Positions 21,639-64,000 of a DNA stretch of 64,000 nt are shown here, in pieces (position 1 is the first letter of the stretch; each line of letters opens with the position of its first letter). Made by a program: the position numbers and the translations under genes. This stretch comes from Lingula anatina (Eukaryota > Animalia > Brachiopoda), in NCBI GenBank assembly GCA_051362555.1, contig CM120646.1:10912001-10976000 (forward strand). The letters are read 5' to 3'. A model generated the notes under the pieces. That model searched no databases. It saw only the letters and a program-made list of their open reading frames with translations, and was not told the origin of the DNA.

Positions 21639-22928
21639 ATGGAAGTTGAATCCATAAACATGGCAAGGAATTTTGATGATGGATTGTATTCCGTGGGACC
21701 AAGATGGACAGCAACATCGATATATAGCATTGACGATGGCGGAATGCCAACCAACAGTACCGTTGAACCAATGAACGAGACTTGCGGTGATTTGCTGTAT
21801 CTCGGTAAGCAAGCCGAATACAAAGTGCCGATTTACGGTTACCTATCGCCGATTGTGGTCTTATTTACCGTTATTACAAACGTTCTCATTTGCGTTATCC
21901 TTCTACGACGACACATGCGTACTCCAACGAACGTCCTTCTGGTATTCATGGCTTTATCTGACCTGTTCACCGGGCTGTTTCCATTGCCTTTTTTGCTCTA
22001 CGTCTACACAGCTGGGCGCTACGTGGATTATCTGCCGTTTGACACATGCTGGATGTATAAATACCTATTTGAAATTATCCCAACGATATTCCACACGGCC
22101 TCTATATGGCTCACTGTTGCCCTTGCTTGCCAGAGGTACGTCTATATCTGCCATTCGACCAGGGCGAGGGAATGGTGTACGATACCAAATGTCATCAAGG
22201 CCACGTGCATCATCTATATTCTGAGCATCTTGTCGCAGTTAAGTCGATGCTTGGATACCGATATCACTGCATGTGAGGTGCCATCACTGGTGAATCCTAA
22301 CGAAACCATTACCACTTGTTTTGAACAGTTGACCCCCTTAATTGAAGCTAACCAAAACCTGTATTATAACATTTTCTTTTGGTACCGTGTTGTTGTCATA
22401 CACGCCATCCCGTGCGTCACACTCGTAGTCATGAATGCCCTGCTTGTGCGCGCCCTTCGTCGCGCACGGCGTCGTCGTGAGAGGCTCTTGCAGCAGAACA
22501 GAAAAAGCGAATGGAAGAAGATTCACGAAAGCAATTGCACCACCCTAATGTTAATTGCCGTCGTTGGTGTATTCCTTGTCGTTGAAGTGCCCATGGCCAT
22601 TAGCTTCATTCTGTACATCGTGCAGAACACCTTCGAACTTCTTATCCTGACCGACGACACCCAACAGAGTATTTCCATGATAATTAACTTCTTCATCTTA
22701 TTATCGTACCCGCTCAACTTTTTCATATATTGCGCCATGAGCAGACAGTTCAGAGAGACATTCAAGCAGGTGGTCTTACGGCGTCCTGCTGACTTGAAGA
22801 AGGATTCTACAAAATACACCACCTTACCGACCACAGTGAACATTGAAAACACTGTGGTCAAAAATGGCAATGGCGTTAGCGGCGATGATTATACGGGGCC
22901 TCAATGTAACGAAGAGTCCAAAGTGTGA
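21639..22928 (+). CDS. SPR: Rhodopsin-class neuropeptide GPCR, sex peptide receptor / myoinhibitory peptide (Wamide, allatostatin-B) receptor-like, 429 aa, intronless CDS
   Basis: Seven hydrophobic segments and SPR-type motifs YGYLSP, RHMRTPTN, PTIFHTASIWLTVALACQRY(V)YICH (QRY in place of DRY), AREWCT and NFFIYCAMSRQFRETF. N-terminal sequons NST and NET. Probable 5'UTR acceptor cccctcag ending at 21540; AATAAA near 24303 and 24626. Confidence 0.9.
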   Translation: MEVESINMARNFDDGLYSVGPRWTATSIYSIDDGGMPTNSTVEPMNETCGDLLYLGKQAEYKVPIYGYLSPIVVLFTVITNVLICVILLRRHMRTPTNVLLVFMALSDLFTGLFPLPFLLYVYTAGRYVDYLPFDTCWMYKYLFEIIPTIFHTASIWLTVALACQRYVYICHSTRAREWCTIPNVIKATCIIYILSILSQLSRCLDTDITACEVPSLVNPNETITTCFEQLTPLIEANQNLYYNIFFWYRVVVIHAIPCVTLVVMNALLVRALRRARRRRERLLQQNRKSEWKKIHESNCTTLMLIAVVGVFLVVEVPMAISFILYIVQNTFELLILTDDTQQSISMIINFFILLSYPLNFFIYCAMSRQFRETFKQVVLRRPADLKKDSTKYTTLPTTVNIENTVVKNGNGVSGDDYTGPQCNEESKV

Positions 22929-38343: not shown

Positions 38344-39210
38344 AAGACCTATGTGGCTCCACAATTATATTATATTATATTATATTATATTATATTATAT
38401 TATATTATATTTATCTCTCGTAAGGAAGACTACGTCTCTTCCGGTAACATATAGATAGAGAATTTGGATATGTTTCTGTAATGTCGGGTGTATTGTTTCA
38501 GGCCGACCCAAGTAGGAATTCGGACCTAAATCAACGTCGTATGTGATATTGTTTAAATAAAAACCAAACATAAGATTCCTCTCAGTATTGACATTCATAT
38601 TTTCTCTCACATTCTCTCTCATTCCTAAAGCATATACGTCCACATGTTTTGTACACGTGGGAATTCCCAAAATACAAGAACTATTGTCTCCTTGGCAATG
38701 TTATGTAGCTAGCATTAATGGGATTTTTTATTTATTTTCATTAAATATGAGTTTTTGCAAAAGATTATGCAGTTTATTCTGAACTACAGTATCTTATATT
38801 TGGTATCATCTGTCTCGTTGAAATCATTATATATTTTAATATATTTTAAAATGTCATCTATTTTATATTATTTCTTCATAGTCTTTGTGCCATTTGTCTG
38901 TTGCTTTTTTTCGAGTTTTTAGAGGTAATTCTGATAGAAATATCTTGCCGGTTGCGAAATGCTGTTTATTGTATTTGTTTCCTTGCATAGTTTGTATAGA
39001 TATTTATCGTTAGTCAAAACAGAATTTCACCATTGAGCTTGAATACTATTTTGGCTACTCATGTAGTCTAAAAATTGACATTTAGTTGCTTGTACACTTA
39101 GTTGCTGGTAAATGTTTTGTTTTCATTTCCCGTACAGTGCTGGTCCGTACAAAATATTCATCATTATGTGATCATATGTGGTAATTTATATTCTTATGGA
39201 GAATTCACAT

Positions 39211-42200
39211 TTAGTTTCTTTTCCACCATTCAAAAGCCTGTGTTGCGACGACTGCTCCGTCAGCACTATCGTACGGGTTGATAGCTTGGTTCACGCGGAA
39301 GTTCGTAGTTTTCCCGAGAATCTCGACTGTGACGTCAACGTTGGACCACTTTCCGGAAGTTGGAACGAAGTTGGCTTGGTCGTAGGAGGCCTGAAATGTG
39401 TTTTTAAAGATTCGATGAAAGATTTTATCTGGTATATAGTTGTAAACATATCTTACATGATAAAGTAAAAGATAATGCCTGATTGAGAGTCGATACTCTA
39501 GACTTTACAAAAGTAACCCTAGGGTCCTCTTTGCAACCCCACAAATTATGTACAGTAGGTACAGGAATGTTTATGAATAAAAAATAACTTATGCTGACTG
39601 ATCGCATCATAATAGTCCTATGGATAATTAATCCTATTGGAAATTTTATATATGTTTTTATTACTTTGATCATCATATTAGTACAGGCAATGCGTTTCAA
39701 GACAGTTTATTTGTGGGGCTACATATATATATATATATATAATAAAAGCGGCCTTAAATTAGCCAAAACTCGAACAACACATTCCCTGTGCTGTTTGTTT
39801 ACTTTGTACAGATAATGGCGTGATTTTTTGTGGTAATTTGAGATGGGACAAACAAACCTTAAACACAACGATACCAGAAACAACTTGGAAAGCAAGTGCA
39901 TCTAAGATTTTAAGTGTAGATCACAGTTGAACACTTGTATAAAAAGGTTTAGAATAAGCCTTACCCTAATGCATTAAATTCGACGAAAGCGCCCCGTTCA
40001 CTCGTATCAGGCGCTGACATAAACGGTGTGGCAGAGAAGCCTTACAATAACCACTAGAAAAGTACATAGATACCGTTCTCCTTTGTGGGACATTTTGTAA
40101 TGTAATTTACCTTCATCAGAGCAATGAGGTGAGAACGCTAAGTTTAGATTGACGTCATTGTCACGTGGTGTTGCACGCAAAAAGGGTACCTTGGCATTAG
40201 AGTATCGTACTAGGTCTACAAATACTTACTGCCTTGACTCTGTAGTTAGCGTTTTGTGTAGGCACCTTAGCCAACCAGCTGTAGGTGTTTCTGGCACTTT
40301 CATAGGCAACGCGAGCCGATGAGTACCCTGGGCAAGCTAGATAGAGAATAATTTAATGAGGATTATTACACAATTTTTGACTACATTTGGACTTACATGT
40401 ACCTTACAATGCCCATTAATGTTTAGAAGGCATTGTAATTTCAAACATTGTTTAAAACGTTGTGTGTGTGACCAGAAAATGTCACGAAATTTAGGTACAT
40501 GTAAATACACCAGTCAGATAAAGAGAGAGAGAGAGAGAGTAGATTTCAAACAAGTGCCACCTATCTTAACTATTTTACCCATGTACGCATTCTGTGGTCA
40601 ATTCAGAAGACAATTGTTCATTTTGCACATCTTGATTAGCATCACGGGCACTGACTGATAATCATAAATATTTAAGTTTTGATTAACCAACGGTCAATGA
40701 CCGCTTTATTACGATGCAGATGTCGTTTAAAATGCAGTACTGGATTAATAAAACAGGGGCCAAAAAGAGTGCCTTCCATTGAAGAATGCGATTGCTGTGT
40801 CAACACTCAATTTAAATGTGTTAGTTGAGAACCTTACCGTTATTTGCATTCACGTTACACCAGGAGCATTGATCCTGGTACTTCTTGCAGGCTTCCCCGG
40901 CATTTCTCTCGATTTCACCACAAGAGGGCTCTGCGCGCTTGGCAAGGGATCTGCGTTTCCCCCATCCTATTGACAAATAAAAGACTTATCTTTATGAATG
41001 GTGATTGCTCGTGGGTTATTTCAATAATATTGATATTAAAATATATTTATATGAATATCTACATGTATATACTCTCTCTCTCTTTCGGTTACTTAAAACA
41101 ACTTGATTATGAAAATATTATCTTATCTACATACGAAAAAGATATGTATAAAGCAAAATATAGAAAAAACTAATTAAACAAACATGCATGGATCTTAAAT
41201 CAAACTTCAACGTCAATACTTATTCAAACTGAAGTTATTCCTGAAAATACTTCTCAGTAAGTCACCTGAAAATACGTCTTTAATGCCTCCAATGACTTTG
41301 TCAACGACCTGAAAGTCACAGGTTGGCGTTGGGGTTATTAAGAAAGTAATATTTATTCCCCACACATACACTTATAATGGAAATAAACACAATATAAACG
41401 TAAATGAGCACGCTAATAAGAATAACTTTATAATAAACTTGTATTAAGAAAGAGCAAAGTATACAAATACATCACCTCAAATAGAAAAAAAGGAGAATAC
41501 ACGCCCTTCATATAACATGCGAGCGCGGACAATTTTATCAATTCGCAAAGCCAGTCATCAAAAAGATGCTATAAAGCCGATTTAAAACCGATGATTCCAT
41601 AGAAAATTACTTACGTCTTTAGCTTTACTGGCCACAGATCCTCCAAGGTCTCCAATTGTTTTGATGGCACCACTAAAGGTCAGCTCTCTGTGTAGGTAAA
41701 TTTACATAATGTTGAGCACATTCCTATGGGAGACCTTTCACATGGTCTCCCATAGAGGAAAACATCCACATGTTATGGTTCACACGCCTTAGCTAAGCTG
41801 TCCCATTATAAAGCTGATAGCTGAAGCAGATGATAGCTTTGAGTCCGTTCCTTTAGTTGAAATCTTAGATAAACTTTAGTTGAGATCTTGCCTTAACTTT
41901 AAGATGTAATCTTCAGGGTTCTAATTAAAATGTATGTGATTGTACTCCACATAAAGGTTTTATAGCCTAAATGTATTTTACAAAGAGTGCATAATGCTAT
42001 AGAACGAAATATGCTAAAGTCTAGTGGGATACGTCTGATTATTACTTTGTCTTAGTAGACTTAATATTTTGGTCTTGGATGTCTACTTAGAAGCCGTCAT
42101 GGCATGGGTTCTGGTAATGCAGGCAGTTGCAGACTGGATTATAATTGACACGCGCGACATACCGTGCGTTGATAGCAGTCGGCATGCACTGGATTTGCCA

Positions 42201-43492
42201 GAATTTAGATATGGTTTTGACATAATGAACACTATTTGAACAATTCTTCCATTTTTGGCGCACTCTTTAAAATACCTTTAACTTGTCCTTAAATCTAAAA
42301 TTGGAAATCTGAAACTGAATATGTCATTTTTTTGCCTGAGATGGGGAGACATCCATCGTACTGAGTAACGTTGCTAGGGGGCACTTGCACAGAGGAGCTG
42401 AAAAGTTTTTACTATAGCCCCTCAATCAGTTTAAACTTTTGAACTAAATTTAAGACTTTTTCAGTTCAAGATATATCAACATAAGTCCTCTAAAAGTACA
42501 TGCTGGGATGAAACAAGAGCCATGTCTGTCTTGCAATAAAAATTAAAACTGGTAAACTAATCAATTTAATTGGAATAAAACTATTTAATCTTGGCTCAAA
42601 TCGGACGAAACTTTTTGGTTTAAAGGATAATTCCACTTTAAAGTTAAAGTTTTTTTAAACCTCAGCCTCTCTCTCTAAATAACCAATTAACCAACCGGAT
42701 TCTTGGTCGAAATCATTAATGGTAGATACTACACTATGAAAAAGGGTATCAGTTTCTCCTGGCTTAATGGCTGCAGGCATTTAGCAAACAAGTAGCAAGT
42801 TTCCGCATTTACCTGTTACAAGACTTGGCTTTGGCTTTACATTTGTCAACTATGCATGGAACGCAGATTTTCTCCTGGTTAGTTTTAATGAGGTTTTGGC
42901 AGGTTGTCGTAGCGGCCTGGAAGGCACTCTCCTTGGCCTTGTAGTCGTTGTTGGCTGCTTGGATTTGAGTCACAATGTACTGGCCCCCAGAAGACGTCAG
43001 AGCTGGAGAAATCAGTAGTAATTGTTAATCAAACGTACAACAAACATATTTCTGTTTTGCTATTTATCTATTCAGTGTAAGTAAGAATCTGCGGTAAGCT
43101 TTATTTCAAATGCATGAATATAAATACAAATACATGAAAAATCATGCTGTCCGCTTGATATCAAATAAAATAAGTACGAAATAATACATTTATCAAATAT
43201 ATATAAAATGCAAGGTCATTAAAATCAGGTTGTCCGATCTTATGGGAAGCAGCCATATGGCACTTAAATCATAAGCCAGTCTGTTTAGAACGTAATACAA
43301 GCAAGTTATTTACGACCGCAACATTAACTTTTTTGAATCAGTACTGCTAAGTATTGATATTCTGTAAGTTTTTTGTCTCATTGAAGAGACGAATCTATTA
43401 CGACACTCACGCCCTAGAAAGTTACTGCTCAGCTGCGTCACTTGCCCCAGGACACATGGCAGCAAAAGACAGGCGGCAAACACGACCTTCAT
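39211..43492 (-). CDS. Secreted clusterin-like protein A (spliced, 267 aa)
   Basis: Coding exons (minus): 43492-43411, 43002-42813, 41687-41615, 41308-41266, 40966-40838, 40336-40230, 39390-39211. All introns are GT-AG and the frame is open (804 nt). Protein: MKVVFAACLLLPCVLG signal ... GGQYIVTQIQAANND ... CQNLIKTNQEKICVPCIVDKCKAKAKSC ... IGGIKDVFSGWGKRRSLAKR ... CGEIERNAGEACKKYQDQCSWCNVNANNAC PGY ... WLAKV ... VDVTVEILGK ... VVATQAFEWWKRN*. The gene model is well supported; the clusterin label rests on recalled Cys spacing and motifs. Confidence 0.85.
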
Positions 43493-44291
43493 CTCGAGTT
43501 TCTGAAACTGCAATGAAATAAGGTTTGTTATATGTGTGATGTGCAAATCTATGACTAGCGTCCCCCTCCCCCAACAAAACACCCAGTTAAATGACAGAAA
43601 ATATCATAACGTTACTTTAGTTCCATACAGTTTAAGTAAAAACCTGAGTAGAAATGCGGTATACGTAACCGTATCTATAGTTCAAAGTATAATCCTGTGT
43701 ACACGCAGTGTGGTTGGCATATGTGTGGAGGACAATCCAAATCCTAATATTAACAGGGTCGTGCCTTTGGGGTTGGGTTTAAGTTAGAGGTGTGCCGAGA
43801 TAATACACGAAATATAATTATTCAATATAAAATTGAGGTCCTCTACAACTATGAGCGGGTAGAGACAAGGGGTTCAATGGAAACAAAAAGGTTGCAGAAG
43901 AGAGGCAGCAGCATTGCCATGGTGGTTCAAAGTTTGCCATGGAGGGGCATGGGAGATACAATGGAAGAAGACAGAAACATCGTCTTGATTTGCGATTAAC
44001 CACCGCATCTAGTATATGCCGACCATTGACTGGCCACTGTGCATCCATTCTGGTACGACGGCGATGTTTCTGCCTCCTTTCTGCCTTTTTAACCCACTCT
44101 TGAACTACTTTCTGCGATTGTTTTGAACACGTTACAAAAAAATGTACATGGCGTTCACTGCGGCGTCTGAAAATCTCTTGCACAACACATGCACCACATG
44201 ACCAACCAATGTGCCTCTTCTAAGTCTTCAACAGCGATGTTTGAAATATTTTAACTTATATTTAAATATTTTAACAACTGATAATAACTCG

Positions 44292-44533
44292 AACTAGAAA
44301 AGCACTCCGAGAGCGCAGACCTCCGCCAAGGCAGCAATTTTTGATTATTATTGATTGTTGATTGATTATTGGACCGGATCACCACGAAAAACTAATCATC
44401 TCTTCCTTGGCCCACTTCTGACAGTTCCTAAAAAAAATTCATCAAATTCGGTCCATAACTTTTTGAGTTATGTTGATGACAGACGGACAAACAGACAAAC
44501 AGGGGTGAAAACAACTTCCTCGGCGGAGGTAAA
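44292..44533. mobile_element. Short non-autonomous Helentron-like (HINE/DINE-type) element
   Basis: Begins aactaga...acctccgccaagg, contains an acagacggacaaacagacaaac microsatellite, and ends ttcctcggcggaggtaa (inverted sub-terminal repeat with hairpin). Confidence 0.65.
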
Positions 44534-45529
44534 TATGACTACACGCACACACACACATACACTCTTCTGACATCAAAAGTTGGTGTAAATATGGCAGTTG
44601 ATTAATCCAAAGAATGGTTTTGTGATCCCTTTTCTTTCATTCTTTCTTTCTAACTATTTTTCTTCTTTATTGCTTTGATTGTGTAAATGCGATACTGAAT
44701 CTTGGTTACACAAGATCAAAAAGTGTGTATTAATAACCAGCATAAGTATTTCAACAACTTTCCGATACAAAATGTCAAATGCAATGATAGTAGATACCCG
44801 TTCGTGCATGAATGAATGTTAATCAAAATATGAAGCATTTTAATTCTTTTGTTTCTTATAAAGCTTCTGAGATGCAAAAACACTTCAGTTACCAATTACA
44901 AATTTGCAATGAAAAACATTTCGCATGTTTTTTTACAAGAAAATTACGATTGAAATGCAGTGACATTAAAAAAACATCCTCTAACCATCCTATAACCTCT
45001 AATAAAATTGTTATCCTACTCTTAAAACATCACTAGTGTTTGAAACCTAATTCACATCATTTTTCTTCTGCTTTTGAAAAGGGGAAATACATGGCTAGAT
45101 CTATGTATAAAAAAACGTACCACGACTAAAACAGACTAAAAAATATACATACGTGTATATAGCAAAGGGAAACAAGTTTTAGGTCACAGAGAGAAGAAAA
45201 AAATGGAAAAAGTATAAAAAATAAATTATATGAGAAGTATATAGTTATGCATTTTAATATGCAAATCGTGCTTGCCACATGTAACTAATGTTGGTATTAA
45301 GGGGGTGGGAGAGAGAACGATGGTGTTGGAAATGCTAAGGACACCCTTAGACCTCAATCCCAGCGTATGGATCTAGAACGTAAGCAGTCTACATAGAATT
45401 AATCAAAAGAAACCAATCAGTCACTAATTCCCGTTGTCACTCACGTTTCAAAGGAGTGTGCGGTTAGTCACTGATCTCAAGCGTCCCGTATGTTGACACA
45501 AACCCCCCTCCACGCCACCTCCCCAGTCC

Positions 45530-45537
45530 TATATAAA
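45530..45537 (+). promoter_or_regulatory. TATA box of clusterin-like gene B
   Basis: cTATATAAAggg about 60 bp upstream of the ATG at 45593. Confidence 0.7.
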
Positions 45538-45592
45538 GGGACAAGGACATGATATATGCACATTTATCACGAAGAGAAAACAAACAGACACG

Positions 45593-48500
45593 ATGAAACT
45601 TCTCATACTGGCAGCTCTGGTGGCTGCAGCCTATGGCGCCTCCGTTCCAGTACCTGCTTCTATGTTTCCAGGTGAGTTTAGTCTTATCTCTTAGAGATAT
45701 TTTCATTTTTGTCTTTTTTTGTATATATATCTGCCATTCAATCTTATGCAATTAATTGTTAAGCAGCCTGTAAAATCCACTGTGAACGGCATTTAGAGTC
45801 TAAAATTCTTCGCTCATATAAATTGTTGTGAAATTGCTCATCTTCCATAGGGAGCTATTGTTTCATTGATGTAAGGTTTTTGTAAAATAAGTTCAATAAA
45901 AAATAAAAAATGAGAATAAACTACTATGACCTTTTGGATACAATACTTTAAACGTAATATATGAAGAGAGAGAGAGAGAGAGAGAGAATGTAACGTAATT
46001 TGAACGTCAAGAATCGTTATGCCACACCAGAGTCTCGTCATGTTCTCCAACTGCTAATTTCACATGGATTATCCGATCAAACCTCACCTTAGTTTCGTAT
46101 GAGATGTTAAGAGGTTTAAAACTCAAGGGATGTTGCGGGCAAAACACTCCATTTCAATTTTGGGTGCTTTGAAGCGATGAAATTGAAAGTATAGCTTTTT
46201 TTAAAAAATCATGCAAATGTCGTCCTTACTCCAGTGTTTTCCCCCCTTCATTCTTATGAGTTAACAGGACCTTTTCGCACCGAATGTCGACAGAGCTAAT
46301 AGGAACAAATCAATGGGAACCAAACCCTGCGTGTCGCAGCTGACTCTTTTGTGCATGACCTTGAGTGTGCTATCTGTCCCTTTCAGATAGAGTCTCAAAT
46401 CTAACAAAAGCACAAGAAAAAGAGATAAGAGTTTATTTAGCCAATTATAAAAATCGGAAATCATTTTGCTTTTGAAGCAAGTTTGATAATATACAGAGTA
46501 AAAGTAATACAATAGATAAATTAAGAATTTGGTTTTGAGATCAAATTAAAATGCGAAACTGCACTTGGATAAAAGCTGTTTAAAAAGCGTTTACTGCCTT
46601 TAAAAGTTAAAAGTCAACTATTGCTTGGTAAAAACTTAAAAAGTGATGATGCAGGATGAGAATAGTCTTCCATGGCGTTAACAGTTCTTTTCTCCATTCT
46701 GTCTTTAAGAATATAATTCAGCTTGGGGAGATTCTGCCCGATAATCTTTATTGCAGTTTCTTTCTATCCTCCTCAGTTGCTCTGCTATACAATATTATAA
46801 TTCAGTACGCCAGGATGCTTTCAATTACACACCTGTAAAAATTTACTAAAATAGGCACGCTATCAGTAAAAGTTTTCCATAACCTTAAAAATACTGTCTT
46901 TGCCGTGCCTTCTTTACACCCTTCGCAGTGTTATCTCTCCAATTCAATTTACTATTCAGGTGTTCAACCTATCAATCATATAATCAATTTTTTAAAACCT
47001 TGTTTCTCATTTACGGTGTCTGTCGTTGTGTGATCAATCGATGAATTGATTATTTGATTATTCACTAGTTGATTGATTGTTTGATTGATTACATGTATAT
47101 AGCTGATTGATTGCTTCAGTTCCTTTATTCTAACGCCACTGTCACTCAGTTATACGTTTTTAAAAACATTTTTATTCCATAATCCAGCCATCCAAGCAGG
47201 AGGTGTGAAGGTACTGCAAGCAGCCATCGTTGGCGTCCAGAGAAACTTCAACGCTTCCATCGAAGCTTTCAAGTCCGTCAACGTCACCTGTAACACTATC
47301 GTGAATAGGAAGATAGAAGAGTGCAAATCTTGCGTTACCACGTCCTGTGAAAACCGGTAACGCGAGTTCCATTTAATATTACTGGGCCCATTCGACATTA
47401 ACGATAGCATTAGTCTTTTCCAAAAAAAAATTAAATCACGCGTGTTTGTGAAATTTGAAAGGCAATGCTTTATTTAAGATAAATCCAGATGAGAAAACTA
47501 CCGAGCCTCTCAAGTGGTAATTTGCAATGTTCATCAATCGGAATTGCTAATGATATCGACTCCATTTTCCGGAAAAAACTCTCTAGCCATCTCTAATTGT
47601 TTCATATGATGCTACAAAGAAACAAAAACTGTCTATTACAGCGCCAAGCAGGCCTGCAAGCCTTCCGATTTCCAGCTAGTATTGGCCAAGGGTATCGGTT
47701 TCTTTGCCTCCGACATTCCCAATTTCTTCTCCAATAGTCTGCCAAACTTCTTCGTTGACGACATTGGCGGCGGAGTAATAAAGCTTGGAAATGAAGTAGG
47801 AGATTTCTTTACTAACACGGTAACTTTTTCTGTATTTTATTTTCTTTTATTCAATATATTTTTTCTTTTTGGATATTTTAGCCTTTTCTTTATTCAAGAA
47901 ACCTATAGTATGTAGAATTGTCAAAGGAGCAGAAACGTGGTGTTTTTATTGCAATTCATCCATAGTCCGTATGGAAATAGACACTTTTTTTAACCAAAAG
48001 GCATCTCATTTTCTTACCTAAAACCACTATGCTATTAGTTAAGACCTGATGAATGAGTAACGGTGAATTGATATGTTTATAACATACGTGAAACTAATTT
48101 GTTTAATACATATTCCCAATATTAATTCCATGTCTGCTACTTCGGTGCTTTTCTGCCGCATGTCCAAAACATCTTCGATTGATTAATTGATTGATTAATC
48201 GAACTTTTTTCTCATATCTTAGATCGGAGGCGGTATAACAGACCTCGGCAATAATATCGCCGGCGGTTTTATTGACGTTGGAAATGGTATTGCAGACATA
48301 GGAAAAAACATTGGAAATGGCATTGTTGATTTTGGCAAAGGCATCGCAAACGGTTTCGTCGATTTCGGTAATAAAATCGGTGATCTAGGAAATACCGTTA
48401 TTGATGGCATTGGCGGTGGTATTGGCAAAATTGGAGATTTCTTCAGCGGCTTTGGAGACCTCTTCGGAAGTAAGTCTAAATGATACAACTGAGCCGAAAG

Positions 48501-49871
48501 TTTAAAACGTTTTTTTTCATTGAAATATGTAGATCTGTAATTGCCCATTTTGTTTTCAATTAAGCAAAACAAATATAATATAGCAAAAAGGAGGGGCTTC
48601 GAACATATTTTATTGTTACGAATGGCTTTAATCACCAATACTTGCGATATCTGAAACAGTATGCTTTCTTATTTAACAACCCATATTCCATATGGAGTTA
48701 CTATAAGTATTTGTGATCTGTATAATAACATGTATACCCAGAACAGACACAAGAATAGAGTGTGAAAAACTGCTCTAACAATAAAATGACAAATCTTAAC
48801 ACTTTAATATCCTTATTCAAGGGCGCCGTAGAGATGTTCACCACGAGATGGCCATGCACAAGCTGAACCGCATCATGCGCGCAGGAGAGCCCGGATGTGA
48901 CGCCATCAAGAACGACGCCTCTAACGCGTGCAAATACTACATCAAAACCTGCACCCAGTGCGACATTGAAAAATCTCGAGGTAAATTATTGGAATACTAC
49001 GCCAACGATCAACATTTTTTGAAGGTTTATTTTTCTTTAATTAACATTTTCATAAAATGACAGCCCGCAATTCTTTTTTTCAAAATGGAGAGGGACAAGA
49101 AATAAAAATTCGTAAATCATAAGATTTATTTCTTTTTTTTTATTTTGAATTTTAGTTTTTGGAAATATTTTGCATCAATATTATATAAATATGAGGCAAG
49201 TAGTTTTTTTTTAGTAAGCTTTTGTTTCTTGCAGTCCTTTACATTAGATACGCTGCATCGTAAAATTAAAATTAAAATTATTTCCTACAGATTGCCCTGG
49301 ATACAAGACTGCCATGGAAAATCTGATCAAGGCCAACAATGACCGCCAGTGGCTCTCCAAGGTTAAAAAGAACAACTATGACATCCTCTCCGTAAGTAAA
49401 ATTTCAGTTTCTATCTACATACTAGTCTTTTAATAGGCAAATATGCCGTCTGATCTTTGTTGATCTTATTATAATCCTTTGGTAGAATGTTTGATTAATC
49501 TAGGACTGCCATGAACAGCAAGGAGTTTAGTTTTTGGAAAAAGTCCTGTTTCACAATTCACAATTCATCCACTCTCACATATATAGATATGGGCGTGTAT
49601 AAGAGCCCAATGAAAACATGAAAGCAACAAATTCGAAATCTATGAATACCTTCTTGATTACGAAATTTACTGAGAAAATCGTTTTCCGCAGGTTACTTAC
49701 GACCCAACCGCTTTCGACCCCGCTACCGGTGGCTTCAAGGGAGTCCAAGCCAGCGTGAACCTGTTCGGCAACGCTCTCTCCTTCACACTGGATACCAACC
49801 CCTTTGACCCCACCAAGGCCGGTCCCGCCATTGCCGCCAAGGCTGTTCTGAAACTCAGTGGAAGAGAATAG
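45593..49871 (+). CDS. Secreted clusterin-like protein B with Gly-rich amphipathic repeats (spliced, 370 aa)
   Basis: Coding exons: 45593-45671, 47188-47356, 47642-47819, 48223-48469, 48822-48980, 49291-49391, 49692-49871. All introns are GT-AG and the frame is open (1113 nt). Protein: MKLLILAALVAAAYG signal ... CNTIVNRKIEECKSCVTTSCENRAKQAC ... Gly/Ile/Phe/Asp repeats ... FGDLFGRRRR ... RIMR ... CDAIKNDASNACKYYIKTCTQCDIEKSRDC PGY ... WLSKV ... VQASVNLFG ... AIAAKAVLKLSGRE*. Intron phases 1,2,0,1,1,0 are identical to paralog A. Confidence 0.88.
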
Positions 49872-50790: not shown

Positions 50791-52266
50791 TATGTCTGTT
50801 GCTTGGATTTCATGTCAAAAATGTTATTGATTAAAATATCGGTCTTTAACCCATTCATCTGAGTAGTTATTCAATTTCTATTGTTCGTCACTAATATCAT
50901 CAAGTCACAGTAGTACAGAGGCAGTCTCCACCAGGTTTGAAAACTATCCAATATTGTCTCCTTCTTACTGCCAACTATGGACTATATAACACAATAACAT
51001 TTTAGCAATTTATATACATTTATCTATTCTTGCCTTGTATATAACAGAGCATCACAGATAATTTCACTCCTTCTAGTCGAGATTCCCAGTGTTTCCGAAA
51101 ATCCCTGTATTTTTACTTTGTTTAAGAGGGTGGTGTCATGTTTGCTGATTTTTATTATGAAAATGCATCATAATCTACACATTGCTGATATTTTTAACCC
51201 CTTCCCCCAAAATAGATAAAATAAAGTAAGTAAAATTCGTACAAAGTCATTCTTCACATTTCCTTCTTTCTTCAAACTTTGTTCTTGTTCTCGAATTAGG
51301 GCTATTTAGTAAGTTAAAATTGGTGGGTTTGAGCACCTGCGCTGTTCTAACATAACAAAAGTTATCTGCTTGTGAATTATGAACTCTTAGAATAATAAAG
51401 ACTAGAATGGTCATCATGAAAAAATTGCGATACTGTTTATGTGATCAATTGTGTTTAATAAGATTAATACAGGGGCGGATCCAGGATTAATTGAAGAGGG
51501 GTCCGCGGATGCGAAGCTGACTTTACCCCCCCCCCCCCCTTGGCGTGGGGTTTGGGGCCTGCTCAAGGGCCCCGAAAGTTTTTTAATGGGGTTATCAGAC
51601 CATCAACAAATGTTAAGGGAGATATTCTAACGTTCTACACTGCCACTGTCATCATCATTGATCCGAGAAACGTTGCCAGCAAGTTCTATTAACGTATATA
51701 AATTTTGATGAAATTTACAAATTATACATTTTTTATTAATTTTGGCAAAAACACATGAACAAAGGATTTCACATTTTATATCACTAGAATTTGCACAACT
51801 TTAATCATCCCCTCTAGTATTTAAACGTTCTAACAATGTTATAAAAATAAAAAGATATGTGTCGGTTATATTTACCAATAGTCTCGCCATACGCTGTCGG
51901 TATTTAACGTTGGGCATCAAGCCTGTGTCACACGCTGTCTTAACTACACCTAGTGGCTGATTACAAATTGGGGTGGGGGTTAGTCGGCGACTAGATCGAT
52001 GAGGATTTTACCCGAATTTGAAATTACCCGAAATTACCGACTTGATGAAAAGCTTTAACAATTATTTTAAAGTAGACTTCAATTTTGTAATAAGGTTTAT
52101 CAAAATTATTAAAAAGGTGTTTTCAATTAATCGTGATAGTTGATTGGCGTTTGTAATGAATTAATTGTTTTAACTTAATTTTAGAAAATCCATTCCAATA
52201 AGTCGCTTACAAAGTCAGCTTACACAGGAGTAGTGAAAAGGGAGGGATTTCAGTCTAAGGGATCTC

Positions 52267-52693
52267 AGGTGGGGCGTCTCCATTTCATTAGAGGGGTGAC
52301 AGGTGGGGCGAGTCCATTGCATTAGAAGGGGTGACAGGTGGGGCCAGTCCATTGCATAAAAGGGGTGACAGGTGAGGCGAGTCCATTGCATTAGAAGGGG
52401 TGACAGGTGGAGCGAGTCCATGGCATAAGAAGGGGTGACAGGTGGGGCGAGTCCATTGCAAAAAAGGGTGACAGGTGGGGCCAGTCCATTGCATAAAAGG
52501 GGTGACAGGTGGGGCGAGTCCATTGCATTAGAAGGGGTGACAGGTGGGGCGAGTCCATGGCATAAGAAGGGGTGACAGGTGGGGCGAGTCCATTGCAAAA
52601 AAGGGTGACAGGTGGGGTGAGTCCACTGCATTAGAAGGGGTGACAGGTGGGGAGAGTCTATTGCATAAGAAGGGGTGGCAGGTGGGGCGAGTC
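52267..52693. repeat. G-rich minisatellite, ~36-39-bp unit, about 11 copies
   Basis: Unit agaaggggtgacaggtggggcgagtccattgcat(t/a), with variants recurring in a higher-order pattern. It explains the repetitive ORFs at 52215-52631. Confidence 0.95.
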
Positions 52694-57024: not shown

Positions 57025-57963
57025 AAACAAATAAATAATTAATTAAAGCTCTTCTTAAACTAATGTGATTGGCCTACATTTGTACTATTTCACACTCACA
57101 AACAAAGATGGACAGCACTTTTTGATTAATTTATTATATAATCATTTAATTAATGTATTTATTTATCGAAAATGTTATTAATTGAGTTATCAGACAAATG
57201 AATGAATACCCGGTCATTTTTACCCCGTAATTCTTCTTTGAAAACTTGGACGAACGTCCAAGCGAACAAAAGTCAAAACTTAAATGAATTTAAATTAAAA
57301 GAAAAATATTCAGGCTATTTCATGAATGTATAAATGAAAAAAGGAACATATGAAGGGACTAGGATCTGAGGAATGACTGACTGCCTAAGTGACAACACGG
57401 CTGAACTTGAAGAAATAGATTAGACCATAGAAGTAGTTCTCTACTTCTATGATTAGACCAACTCTCTCGTCTCCTTGCAAGCGCCGAGTTCGCGGGAGGT
57501 CACAGCCTCGATGTGGCATCCTTTGAAGATTTCAAGATGGTGGATAGCAGTCAGAATTTATGCATAGCAGACGAAGTTTGTACATATTAATATACTTCAA
57601 TCTAAATGCTAACTGAAGGATGTTGGGGAGTTTGTGTCTAAACGAACATACACTATAGGATGGAGAGGTGAATGAAACTAATATTTACCTGACGAATTGA
57701 CGCTGTTCCTCGTTTGACTTACTTTTCACCGAAAATCTCAGTGATCGATAATGCTAGTGCATAAAACTTACCAGAGTTTTGGTAGCGAAGATGCTGCTTG
57801 TAAAAACTGTATTCGACGCTGCGGATTGAAATCTTGCACATTTGGACAGGACAGTTATCAAGAAACAGTGTTAAAGTCAAAAAGAAATTATACAATGAAA
57901 CGACAAAATTAATGATGTTAACTTAAAGTTAAAACGTCGCATGCCCATGATATAAAAAAAGAA

Positions 57964-60106
57964 ATGGAACAAAAAGGAAAATCGTATGATTGTAAGGGGA
58001 GCGAACACTTAAGATGTAGAAATGGTTTACTTGTCACAGAGGTGACACTAGAAAAGTCACCGGGCAGCAATAATAGATACTTAATGCAAGAAGGACCTTG
58101 GTTTGCAATTAAAAGTGAGAAACTTGAAGGGTTGGGAAATGGTACAGACTTATGTGAAGAAAGGTTTTTAATGCCAGAAGGAGTACCAGTATGCATCTCC
58201 AATGATACAGCCCTACCTGATGATCCTTGTGCTGAAAGCAATTCACAATCTGTCACGATGAAAAGAGACATTTGTGATGCTTTTGACCATGTCAACCAGC
58301 TTGTACCCACTGAATTGCAAGCTAGCATGGTAAAAACTGAGTCATGTGAGTCTTATAGCCTGTACACTTTGGATAGTCATCTGAGTTCCAATGGCAACTC
58401 TTGTAATGTGACCAGAGAACAAATTCAAAATTCTATGAAGAAAGACACAGTTGAACAAGGAATTGAAACAGAGATTTTTACTTTAGATTTGACTACTGGA
58501 ATGATAACCCCCTGCAATGATAATAGTGAAAGAGCTGAGAATTTCAGGGAATCTTGCAACCTCGATAAGAATACAGGGACAGATATGAAAGGTAGTCTCT
58601 GTGTTGTGAATTGTTCTGAGAAACAAGATCAGTGTTCTCATTTGGGGATTAAAAATTGTACCAAAGTCAGTTTTGCTGCTGACAATGACACAAAGGCCAC
58701 CTCAGCAAGTAACCAAATACTGAACAAAACATCAACATCACAGTTTAAATGTCGTTTCTGCAGCAAGCAATATAAAATGTCTGGGCATCGCAACAGGCAC
58801 GAAAGAACACACTCAGGGGAAAAACCTTACAAATGTGATATGTGCCCGATGTCATTTGCAAGAAAAGATATTTTTCGGGTGCATCAGATGAGGCATGATC
58901 AAATATTCAAAGAAGGTTGCACTCGTCCTCGTGTTCCTTGTCCCATGTGTTCGAAAGATTTTCGTGACAAAAGAGATCTGATGAGGCATATGCAAGCACA
59001 CACTGATGCAAAGCCATTCAAATGCAGTTTCTGTGAAAAATACTACAAAGGAAAAAATGAATGCCAGAGACATGAAAGAATGCATAAAGGAGAAGAAAAT
59101 TCTCAAAAAGGAACATTTCTAAAGCATATTTGCGATTATTGTGGAAAGGTATTTTTCAGAAAGGATTCCTATGTGAGACACTTGAGAATTCACACAGGGG
59201 AGAAGCCGTACAGGTATCTTATTTTGTTCTTTGACCTATTGGGTCAGTTTTAAATGTACGGTACAAGAACAAATCTACACTAGTACGCTAGTACTAGTAC
59301 ACTAAAAACTGTTTAGCCAACTGGCCCTGGTGAACTCGAGGGTGTAGCAATCCACCTACACTTAGCAGAAACAGTGGCCAGTAACTGAAGGAAATTTACA
59401 AAAAAAAAATCAGCTGCAATTTTATTGTCATTTTGTGCAGGGTCAGTGTAAATTAACAGACTGAGAAATAAACAGATTTGAAATTTCTGTTCATCATCCC
59501 TTACCACAAACAGATTAAGAAAATTCCTAAATAGAGAGGATGCTCTTTTCACTTGCAGTGCATGATATTTAATGCTGGACTGGGGCAAGTGTTACTGTAC
59601 CTATATCCATCTTTTCTGAACCATTGTGTATTTTTATGGAATGAATATAAGAAGGCTTTCCTATCTGCCCTACTCAACATCTGAAATATTGTACCAAGTA
59701 TAAGTAAGTTCTGAAGGAGATTTTAAATTGGTCTTTTAATTCTTTTATTTATTTTTTCAGGTGTGATGTTTGTGATATTGCGTTTTCAAGGAGAGACCTT
59801 GTTGCACTTCATTTAAAAGAGCACAAGGAAGGAAAAATGTTCAAATGCAAAAGCTGCCATAGGTTATTCTCAGACAAGGATGCCTGTAATAAACATGAGA
59901 GTTGTCATCTTGTTGAAAAAAGCCACCCTTGTCAGTTCTGTGGCAATCTTTTTAAACACAAGCATGCATGCAAGTATCATGAACGTCAGAACTGTAAGAT
60001 GATTAAGGCACACAAGTGCAAGTTTTGTAGCAAGGGATTTTCAACCAAAAGTACTTGCAAAAGACACGAGACTTCTCTCCATGTTACAGAGGACAAGGTG
60101 TCTTGA
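57964..60106 (+). CDS. C2H2 zinc-finger protein (531 aa, 9 fingers, one ending in C2HC)
   Basis: Exons 57964-59213 and 59761-60106, joined by a phase-2 GT-AG intron in the HTGEKPYR|C linker. HSGEKPY and HTGEKPY linkers; AATAAA at ~60360. An additional upstream coding exon cannot be excluded. Confidence 0.9.
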
Positions 60107-61094: not shown

Positions 61095-64000
61095 ATGGGA
61101 AGACCAGGTAAAGTATCATAATTTGGAGTAAAATAACTAAAAACTGTAATGATTTTCACAGATTGAATAAATTTACGCCCATGAATAATATCAGATTGGC
61201 GATCGACATCTGTTGGGTATGTATTTGTACCAGTGAATGAGAGAAGCGTAACCACTTTTGTCAATTTGTGATAGGACCAAAATTTTATTAATATGAATCA
61301 CATTTTCCTCTTAGCGTTGTTACTTCAATAATTTTGAAATCTTGAATGTATTTAATGTAGTTTGGATTTTATCCACATACAAGCAGACAGAAGTATTTGA
61401 CAAAATAAACAAGGCTATGCCTTTGCCCCAGACACCTAATTTCCCTGGACAAGAGCCTAAATCAAAGTAAAGCATCCAATTCAGTCTTTAATTCACGTTT
61501 AACTGAGATAGAGTTTGCCATATATGACTATGCAAGATATAGAAGAAGCTGTGTAGCAAAAGAAAAAAAAAACATCAGGTTTATACAAAGAATTATGACT
61601 ACTACTAGTAATTAACTAATAGCCAGCTGAAGATCAACATTGCTTTGTTATTGTCTGAGACTCATGAATCATCTCTCTTCATAGTCTCACACTTGATTAA
61701 GTTGTAACTGCATAGTGTACTTGCTTGTTGTTCCAGGTTTCAGCCCTAGAGGAGGGGGAAGAGGGGGTTTTGGAGGCCGAGGTGGTGGCGGTGGCCGAGG
61801 AGGATTCGGAGGACGTGGTGGGGGTAGGGGTGGCGGAAGGGGAGGATTTGGAGATCGAGGCGGAGGTCGAGGAAGAGGAGGAGGAAGAGGCGGTGGAAGA
61901 GGTATCATTGATTTAAATCACTATTAGAAAATAATATGGATAATTTTAGTATAACTTATATATAAGTTCTAAGACAGAAAGTTTGAGCTGTTGATAATCT
62001 CAAGGTTGCTTTGATAGATGTCAGTCACATATACCAGAACTGGTTTATCTCAAGCTTTTTATAAACATACAGAGAGAATTAATTTAGTGTAACTGTGTTA
62101 TATAAACAGATTTAATTTGAAAATCTTGAAAAAGAAAAATAAAATTCGTAGTTCAATTCATAAGTCACTGAAGAGGCGGAGACTTAATCATTGTGGTGGA
62201 AAAGACGACAAATGTTATTCTCATAGAAGCCAGGGATTCTTATTTCATTTCTGTTTATTGATTTTCTAGGTGGTCGTGGTGGAGGTAGAGGAGGCGGAAG
62301 AGGTTAGTAGCTTTATTGACTGAAATTTCATACAGAATGCTGGCAGGCAGAAGTAGTAGTGTACTTTCATAGCATAAGATATTCAGAGGAGAGAAGTTAG
62401 TGGAAATGAAGTAATGGAAATATTAACATAATGAAGCATTGGTTTTTGGGGTAGAAAAATAAGATCATCACTCAAGCTAGTATTGATTGTTTAAGTAGGT
62501 GCTGAATACAATTAACTTAAAGTGAGATGTATTTGACTTTTCGTTTTTGTTATTGTTGCTGTTATTAAAAAAAGTTTATTCAAAGGAAAGAAAAGGAGGC
62601 AAAGTCTCAATAACATTATGTGCTATTGTTTGGGAAATCAGTTAAAAAATTACTTCTTTAAAAGGAAAATCTTTACCACAAAGCATATTATTTTATCATG
62701 TAATTTTATAATGTCACATTATAATTTACGTAATTGTGCTACTGACATTAGAGGTGTAAAATATATATAAAGTGTTTTATCATGAAATTAAAATGCTTTA
62801 AGTTAATTGATTTTTTGGTCTAACATCTATGTTATCGATGTTATTTTGATTAACAGGTGGCTTTGGTGCTGGCAAAAAGACAGTTGTTGAGCCCCACAGA
62901 CATGCAGGTAAATACAGAGTTACTTCTGATAAGTTATGACTGCTGAAATGAGCACAGAAAATACCAGCTTATGTGTTTATTGTCTTATTAACAATGGATA
63001 AGTTATGCTTGAAATATGAGAATTCAAGTAGAAAACATGAAGTTAATGATTGAATGAAAAAGAAAACAGAACATGAAATTAAAAAATTATTTTTCTGTCC
63101 ACATAATTGTAAGAGATAGAAATTTGTCATTTTATTAAATGAATGAATGACTTATATTAATTTTATTATTTTGCCCCCCCTTCCCCTCTTTGAAAATGAA
63201 AAAAGGAAAATTGTAGAAGTGATCATAGTTCCATAGCATTAATCTATTTCTTGTATTCGACTGATTTCTGTTTTTAGGTGTGTTTATATCTCGTGGAAAA
63301 GAGGATGTTCTTGTATTTGACTGAATCCTGTTTTTAGGTGTGTTTATATCTCGCGGAAAAGAGGATGTTCTTGTATTCGACTGATTTCTGTTTTTAGGTG
63401 TGTTTATATCTCGTGGAAAAGAGGATGTTCTTGTCACAAAAAACATGGTGTCAGGAGAGTCTGTCTATGGAGAGAAGAGGATAAGTGTAGATGTAAGTTG
63501 AAATGGTTTATTAGTGCTTTAATTATTGTTTTATATAAAGGTGTATTTAAGAAAAAGGTATCATTATAACTGCCTCTTTTGAAACTTCACTAGAGTGGGT
63601 GATTGTTTGAAATTTATTTGCTAGTAAAATGATCTCAAAAACAATAGTTCTATACATATTGTTGATTCAGTGTCAGTAGATTTTAAAGCATTCCAAATTA
63701 GCTTGGATTCATTTAGCTTGTTGTCCTAAGTCTTTTTAGAAATTAAACTATCAATTTAATGTAATAAAAGTTAAGTTTATATTCTCTTGCAAGACCCATT
63801 TCTAAGCTGTCTTAAATTCACATGGAGGTTTTGAAATTATTTGAAGCTCACATAAATGCAAAGGAAGTAATGCATGCTATCAGTAATCACTGTACCTCAG
63901 GTTGTCAAAATCAATCTGTAATGAATTTTTTGTAACATTAAAACCATTCAATTTCAGTTGGATGATGGGTCAAAGCTGGAATACAGAGCATGGAATCCTT
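61095..64000 (+). CDS. FBL: Fibrillarin (rRNA 2'-O-methyltransferase), 5' part, truncated by the window end
   Basis: Exons 61095-61107, 61737-61901, 62270-62302, 62857-62907, 63398-63492 and 63958->64000 give [11 protein letters not shown]..(RGG/GAR domain)..[58 protein letters not shown], the canonical fibrillarin signature. Confidence 0.97.
63248..63434 (+). repeat. Three tandem copies of a 60-bp unit spanning the fibrillarin intron 4 / exon 5 junction
   Basis: ttcttgtatt(c/t)gactga(t/a)t(t/c)ctgtttttagGTGTGTTTATATCTCG(T/C)GGAAAAGAGGATG repeated three times. Confidence 0.95.

Follow-up and report, generated by a model that had tools for sequence, protein, structure and literature searches.

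The clusterin family includes human clusterin, or apolipoprotein J (CLU; structures 7ZET and 7ZEU; Pfam Clusterin, PF01093), and its vertebrate paralog CLUL1 (clusterin-like 1, retinal clusterin-like protein). The coiled-coil bundle of human clusterin is about 85 Å long, and deletion of its helix alpha7 abolishes lipid binding. In a recent paper (Yuste-Checa et al. 2025, PMC12527946), clusterin is called a conserved vertebrate glycoprotein and has a discontinuous fold of three domains (coiled coil, disulfide domain and alpha/beta domain). It is cut after residue 227, 58 residues before Cys6, and the tails made by this cut mediate binding to unfolded clients (chaperone activity), lipids and receptors. 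Here we analyse two genes, A and B, of the brachiopod Lingula anatina, carried by a 64,000-nucleotide stretch of the genome (the window; assembly GCA_051362555.1, contig CM120646.1, positions 10,912,001 to 10,976,000), whose own numbering is used below. Their products are almost certainly homologous to clusterin and form a subfamily that is not CLU proper.

Both genes were rebuilt from the window sequence. They are open from ATG to stop, all introns are GT-AG, and the two genes have the intron phases 1,2,0,1,1,0 in common. Gene B lies on the + strand at 45593-49871, with seven coding exons for 370 amino acids. Gene A lies on the - strand at 43492-39211, also with seven coding exons; it encodes 267 amino acids when the exon-1 donor at 43411 is used, and a nearer alternative donor at 43426 gives an open form of 262. 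Searches with the last exons returned one RefSeq protein of Lingula anatina per gene, both named 'uncharacterized': XP_013383260.1 (P0001) for B, of the same length with eight residue differences, and XP_013383274.1 (P0002) for A, of the same length with three. Identity is thus 98-99%, and the window is invertebrate, not vertebrate-derived. The head-to-head pair of seven-exon genes proposed in an earlier, sequence-only reading is therefore borne out, with start codons 2.1 kb apart. The two genes are paralogous, their products sharing 31% identity across 177 C-terminal residues (E 4e-24); the window contains no further copy. In RefSeq, the Lingula pair is annotated twice, as LOC106153729/736 and the adjacent LOC106172595/596, which are probably haplotypes; a third paralog group is also present (LOC106154486/487, LOC106160244).

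Homology to clusterin is most visible in the sequence. The spliced models reproduce exactly the cysteine spacings read earlier: 10,2,4,7 in cluster 1 and 10,6,2,7 in cluster 2 of B, and 11,2,4,6 and 10,6,2,7 in A. Human clusterin in 7ZET has 10,2,4,7 and 9,6,2,7, in agreement with the human values given in the sequence-only reading. Pfam Clusterin was the best match for both proteins, as that reading led one to expect (B 21.4 bits, E 1.4e-4; A 18.8 bits, E 8.9e-4), but both scores are under the gathering cut-off of 23.6 bits. A profile of 24 invertebrate sequences, compared with 177,635 PDB sequences, placed 7ZET first with E 1.9e-13 (next match, E 3e-4). The alignment covers the ten cysteines, an N-terminal Gly motif, a conserved Trp and the C-terminal strands and helix, and the hidden Markov model alignment pairs the very non-cysteine segments for which similarity had been claimed. 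When the profile was restricted to nine compact forms, 7ZET still came first (E 2e-4), in four colinear segments. Acorn-worm relatives exceed the Pfam cut-off with 67.8 and 51.4 bits, and the Glandiceps protein as lone query retrieves human clusterin 7ZET at E 7.6e-8. A three-sequence sponge-type profile also ranked 7ZET first, weakly (E 0.023), and matched the compact forms with 99.7% probability.

Predicted structures point in the same direction. AlphaFold2 models reached a predicted local distance difference test score (pLDDT) of 83 and a predicted template modelling score of 0.71 for A, and 73 and 0.63 for B. Both show a long N-terminal helix followed by a low-confidence middle, short cysteine-bearing helices, a return helix, three strands and a terminal helix, which is the order of elements given for clusterin in PMC12527946. 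In the comparison with human clusterin suggested earlier, clusterin ranked first in four of four fold searches with these predicted models (A and B; Foldseek and VIA). Foldseek E values were 2.9e-5 (A) and 3.7e-4 (B). VIA aligned 189 residues of A residues 20-267 with Z 8.7 and a root-mean-square deviation (rmsd) of 17.9 Å (next match, Z 5.4), and 258 residues of B residues 19-370 with Z 8.9 and rmsd 16.1 Å (next match, Z 6.3). A search of the ESM Atlas with XP_013383274.1 (A) gave no usable match.

The main departure from clusterin is the coiled coil. Its ends are marked by a conserved Gly and a conserved Trp, so that arm lengths can be read as the Gly-to-Cys1 and Cys10-to-Trp distances. These are 64 and 55 residues in 7ZET and 29 and 19 in A and B, which puts numbers on the much shorter coil noticed earlier: each arm is 35-36 residues shorter than in human clusterin, and the long bundle is absent. 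The same values recur among relatives. Of 13 proteins examined, 10 have a Gly-to-Cys1 distance of 29 residues and three (Glandiceps and two Oscarella) one of 61-62; Cys10-to-Trp is 19 in nine and 51 in four of 15 pattern-matching proteins (23 examined; two have no scored Trp). Sponge and acorn-worm forms thus keep a coil of human length, and the Lingula, chiton and lancelet forms are without 32-33 residues on both antiparallel helices relative to these long forms. Both arms are shortened together, as an antiparallel coiled coil requires. The identical arm lengths of the compact forms suggest a single origin, which trees built without vertebrates neither show nor reject: invertebrate trees with 22 and 15 rows did not settle the base, the long forms were split from the rest in 14-15% of bootstraps, and an approximately unbiased test of that arrangement gave p 0.365.

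Gene structure was also compared. Lingula intron 1 splits the codon five ahead of the conserved Gly, intron 5 splits the codon directly before Cys10, and intron 6 falls at human T388/V389 in the profile alignment. Going by human exon sizes, these three introns would share position and phase with human CLU. Published data bracket the human exon 2/3 border at codons 21-34 (PMC3779157) and the 6/7 and 7/8 borders at codons 293-317 and 388-393 (variant tables of PMC3296573, from whose codon numbers we subtracted 52 residues, an offset inferred by matching residues to 7ZET). Lingula introns 1, 5 and 6 fall inside the 2/3, 6/7 and 7/8 brackets, which are brackets only and not exact positions. The second intron, although of phase 2 in A and B alike, does not occupy a shared position in the pair: in A it follows Cys5 (42813), whereas in B it separates Cys4 from Cys5 (47356).

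Several observations weigh against homology to clusterin or a clusterin-like role and have to be set beside the sub-threshold Pfam scores. None of ten single exons matched Clusterin in Pfam, and XP_013383260.1 alone against PDB sequences retrieved no clusterin at E up to 10. The fold matches have rmsd of 16-25 Å and template modelling (TM) scores of 0.20-0.29, and Z near 9 can be reached by chance for helical models and is not decisive. The shortened coil would account for the poor rmsd and TM of these whole-model superpositions. N-glycan sequons number none in A and two in B against six sites in human clusterin, the tail ahead of the predicted cut site is only 5% Phe in A (12% in B), and nothing in A corresponds to the alpha-tail and helix alpha7 of human clusterin, for which its predicted cut site, 5-13 residues before Cys6, leaves no room. 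Expression was low in the RNA runs examined. One could then suppose that two Cys-rich helices in a coiled-coil protein have simply converged on the clusterin pattern, with an identity of about 14-20% in structural alignments and the low Pfam and TM scores on its side. Such convergence is extremely improbable: the similarity is colinear in four segments that include the C-terminal sheet, the acorn-worm proteins above the Pfam cut-off bridge the gap, the intron positions are compatible with human CLU, and 1809 shuffled or reversed decoys scored at most 8.9 bits against 18-66 for the long forms on profiles without the linker. For this question, sequence evidence outweighs fold-search evidence. 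Profile, structure and gene-structure evidence together support the deep invertebrate clusterin homologs proposed by the sequence-only reading, which had overlooked the amphipathic 11-mer repeat, the lost alpha-tail/alpha7 module and the long forms of acorn worms and sponges. A and B are nevertheless not CLU proper, because they lie below the Pfam cut-off and are without the long coil, helix alpha7 and the human set of N-glycans.

The exons of the two genes carry the protein in corresponding blocks. The coding part of exon 1 (A, 43411..43492, -; B, 45593..45671, +; both matched by the RefSeq proteins) encodes a putative signal peptide, judged from hydropathy: the N-terminus of each protein holds a single hydrophobic stretch (KD19 1.8-2.0; elsewhere at most 1.2). 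Exon 2 of A (42813..43002) encodes a short N-arm helix and all five cysteines of cluster 1, and that of B (47188..47356) a short N-arm helix, the two N-glycan sequons and Cys 1-4. Exon 3 is an amphipathic linker in A (41615..41687) and holds Cys 5 with the Phe-rich start of the linker in B (47642..47819). The linker ends in exon 4 of A (41266..41308), just ahead of a Gly-basic site, and exon 4 of B (48223..48469) consists of Gly-rich 11-mer amphipathic repeats. Exon 5 brings Cys 6-9 together with predicted cut sites, GKRR and KR in A (40838..40966) and RRRR, starting at the junction, in B (48822..48980), where the exon also encodes RIMR. Exon 6 (A, 40230..40336; B, 49291..49391) encodes Cys 10, a short C-arm helix and the conserved Trp, and exon 7 (A, 39211..39390, where reads were seen in run X5; B, 49692..49871) the beta-sheet and terminal helix of the alpha/beta domain, up to the stop.

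A dibasic site stands before cluster 2 in 20 of the 21 proteins in which this cluster was located (24 examined), and Gly precedes it in 17; in three of these 17 the automatic match fell on a Gly-dibasic further upstream, and a second one occupies the expected position. The run of B is RRRR, residues 225-228, formed across the exon 4/5 junction; in A it is GKRR, with an additional KR. The family processing site is thus likely to be Gly followed by a basic run, and not RIMR. The latter, which the earlier reading had paired with the furin site of human clusterin, is indeed present at residues 241-244 of B, but we rejected it on position, 6 residues before Cys6 against 58 in human clusterin. From cut motif to Cys6 there are 5-13 residues in A and 21 in B, where they form one predicted helix; taken together, the predicted sites lie 5-26 residues before Cys6.

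Between the clusters, where human clusterin has helices alpha4-alpha7, A and B carry a Gly-rich amphipathic repeat with an 11-residue period. The hydrophobic moment of the linkers is 0.44-0.45 against 0.19-0.22 after shuffling, with 0 and 3 of 500 shuffles as high, and peaks at 98-99 degrees; when nine proteins were analysed for periodicity, lags 11 and 22 ranked in the top four in most of them. The linker has low pLDDT in both models, and a disordered hydrophobic segment ahead of the basic cut motif may be a further likeness to human clusterin. Repeat length and charge differ widely among species; in Lingula the tail of A is neutral and that of B acidic. Proteins with 11-mer amphipathic repeats form a class that includes apoA-I/E, apolipophorin III, perilipin and synuclein, and exchangeable apolipoproteins usually bind lipid surfaces through such a tail. 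A and B resemble this class in their 11/22-residue periodicity and in the angle of the moment peak, but neither has a Pfam match to its families (none to PF01442 or PF07464 at E up to 10), and the long forms reach 23-28 bits with PF01442, far under its cut-off of 90. The apolipoprotein likeness is one of mechanism and not of family membership.

Relatives were sought with phmmer among 1.84 billion representatives. This gave 69 matches, many through the Gly-rich repeat only, and the stored proteins were rescored on linker-free profiles. Here 59 of 103 exceeded 10 bits (nine of them in the profile, many near-copies) and 44 stayed below 10 on both profiles. Named members were recovered from Lingula, Branchiostoma, the chiton Liolophura, the acorn worms Glandiceps and Ptychodera, and two Oscarella sponges. 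Acorn worms scored 66 bits and Oscarella 18-25 bits on their better halves. All database names of these relatives are 'uncharacterized' or 'hypothetical'. Vertebrate clusterin was absent from the matches of phmmer and of a short-word profile search, the latter giving seven proteins, four of them weak and unnamed. The long forms (Glandiceps XP_077995000.1, Ptychodera XP_070577375.1, Oscarella lobularis XP_065830921.1 and O. pearsei) share with A and B the ten cysteines, the basic site, the 11/22-residue amphipathic repeat and the C-terminal domain, and differ from them in the arms already described.

Liolophura sinensis has an A-like and a B-like protein (P0018 and P0007), both on one 30.1-Mb contig, and A grouped with P0018 at 94/97 in one tree, though not in the linker-free tree; the pair may predate the brachiopod-mollusc split. 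P0018 runs on into a long Ser/Thr-rich tail and is possibly a fused gene model. Bivalve look-alikes have fewer cysteines (5-8 in Mytilus P0080/P0036 and others). On the linker-free profiles Ylistrum, Pecten and Pinctada reached 21, 13 and 11 bits, and proteins of Mytilus, Mizuhopecten, Ruditapes and Tegillarca stayed below 10 bits on both; judged from alignment, membership of the bivalve proteins in the family is probable, if weakly supported. The Mytilus repeat is 33% Lys/Arg, has the highest hydrophobic moment and is reminiscent of antimicrobial helices. Cuttlefish egg-case proteins likened to clusterin (PMC4500399) were set aside on their description, 50-55 cysteines in three Cys domains, no alignment being made.

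How might such proteins act? After secretion and removal of the signal peptide, a furin-type convertase would cut the precursor at the basic run, leaving two chains held together by five inter-chain disulfides between the two Cys clusters, as motif, alignment and clusterin biology suggest. Judged from these sequence features, A and B are likely to be processed into two chains. The repeat would then hang free at the end of the N-terminal chain as a tail of 40-135 residues, perhaps amidated, since Gly-basic is a standard amidation signal. The tail could take the role of the human Phe-rich tails and helix alpha7 in lipid binding and in holding unfolded clients without ATP, and the disulfide domain could serve as rigid scaffold or receptor contact. 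By analogy with clusterin, A and B are on balance probably secreted scavengers of lipids and misfolded proteins; we favour this function because the human tails bind clients, receptors and lipid and because an 11-mer amphipathic tail is a usual binder of lipid surfaces.

Other functions for true homologs deserve weighing. Proteins that are secreted and disulfide-stabilised, with a repeat so variable in length and charge between species and with low, sample-dependent expression, could be structural components of shell, mucus, egg coat or gut lining, the repeat driving self-assembly or coating; chicken clusterin is cited as an eggshell-matrix component in PMC4500399. Nothing found places A or B in a matrix, however, and in a supplement of the Lingula genome paper two of five occurrences of the term proved to be only 'clustering'; we hold a matrix role to be unlikely. 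An innate-immune effector or regulator is less likely again. Its tail would bind or perturb microbial membranes, or the protein would restrain pore-forming complement-like proteins, much as human clusterin inhibits assembly of the membrane attack complex (PMC12527946). An amphipathic helix ending in Gly-basic and the Lys/Arg-rich tail of the Mytilus look-alike would fit, but the Lingula tails are neutral or acidic, a second basic site to free the tail from the N-chain is absent, and the Mytilus protein is among those below 10 bits. Several relatives have two basic sites a few residues apart, which might indicate a signalling precursor, either of a two-chain hormone-like ligand or of a short peptide set free by convertase cleavage; in B this peptide would be the 16-residue stretch from RRRR to RIMR. 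This is very unlikely, the intervening peptide being unconserved in length and sequence and nearly absent in A and in the chiton A-type protein.

RNA evidence was drawn from eight of nine listed same-species runs, examined across the pair. Public RNA is shallow over the pair: in these runs no splice junction was reported above threshold for any of the 12 introns, so the junction check proposed earlier did not succeed as such; reads overlapping gene-A exons were nevertheless obtained. In run X5, over 39000-43861, all nine bins with depth overlap gene-A exons, with one mate direction only, and the three purely intronic gene-A bins are empty. Gene B had only a few reads of mixed direction (X7, X8, X4, X5). 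Most reads in all eight runs went to a dispersed repeat at ~44292-44530, in the 2.1-kb stretch between the two start codons (43493..45592); a related piece lies near 48181-48200, and the repeat resembles a short interspersed nuclear element by impression only. These reads have loose ends and many variants, which indicates that the repeat is present in many other transcripts.

A TATA-like box read from the sequence at 45530..45537 (+), 63 bp upstream of the B start codon, with CCAAT at 45413-45417 upstream of it, is a candidate promoter element of gene B. Elsewhere in the window, one long open reading frame at 21645-22925 (+) encodes a rhodopsin-family, peptide-receptor-like G protein-coupled receptor (Pfam 7TM_GPCR_Srw, E 1e-31; 7tm_1, E 3e-22), and a C2H2 zinc-finger gene is spread over at least two long open reading frames at 57922-60103 (+). 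We also observed a minisatellite at 52266-52693 (35-bp unit, 12.4 copies) and a Gly/Arg-rich (RGG-type) open stretch at 61697-61924 (+) with no Pfam match at E 0.01.

No description of invertebrate clusterin homologs was found in the literature searched, in which subscription journals were poorly covered and some searches badly targeted; this includes the available parts of PMC13580247, PMC7481362, PMC5489563, PMC10425349, PMC4500399, bioRxiv 2022.04.21.489004 and the Lingula genome supplement. Since the acorn-worm proteins would be flagged by any automatic Pfam annotation, databases may already hold a hint. Together with their relatives, A and B imply that clusterin, known as an Alzheimer-linked blood protein, arose by the time of the bilaterian ancestor at the latest and probably goes back to sponges. 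There is about an even chance that the family is as old as animals in the following sense: the long form would predate the split of sponges and bilaterians, the compact form would have arisen by a paired 32-residue deletion before protostomes and deuterostomes separated, and the ancestor would have been an apolipoprotein-like 11-mer lipid binder at the base of the vertebrate chaperone and complement roles. A and B are natural deletion experiments: the 267-residue A keeps the disulfide and alpha/beta domains but has lost helix alpha7, the glycans and the greater part of the coil. It thus becomes testable which parts form the core of an extracellular chaperone and apolipoprotein, and which of the two activities, binding lipid or holding proteins, is the older.

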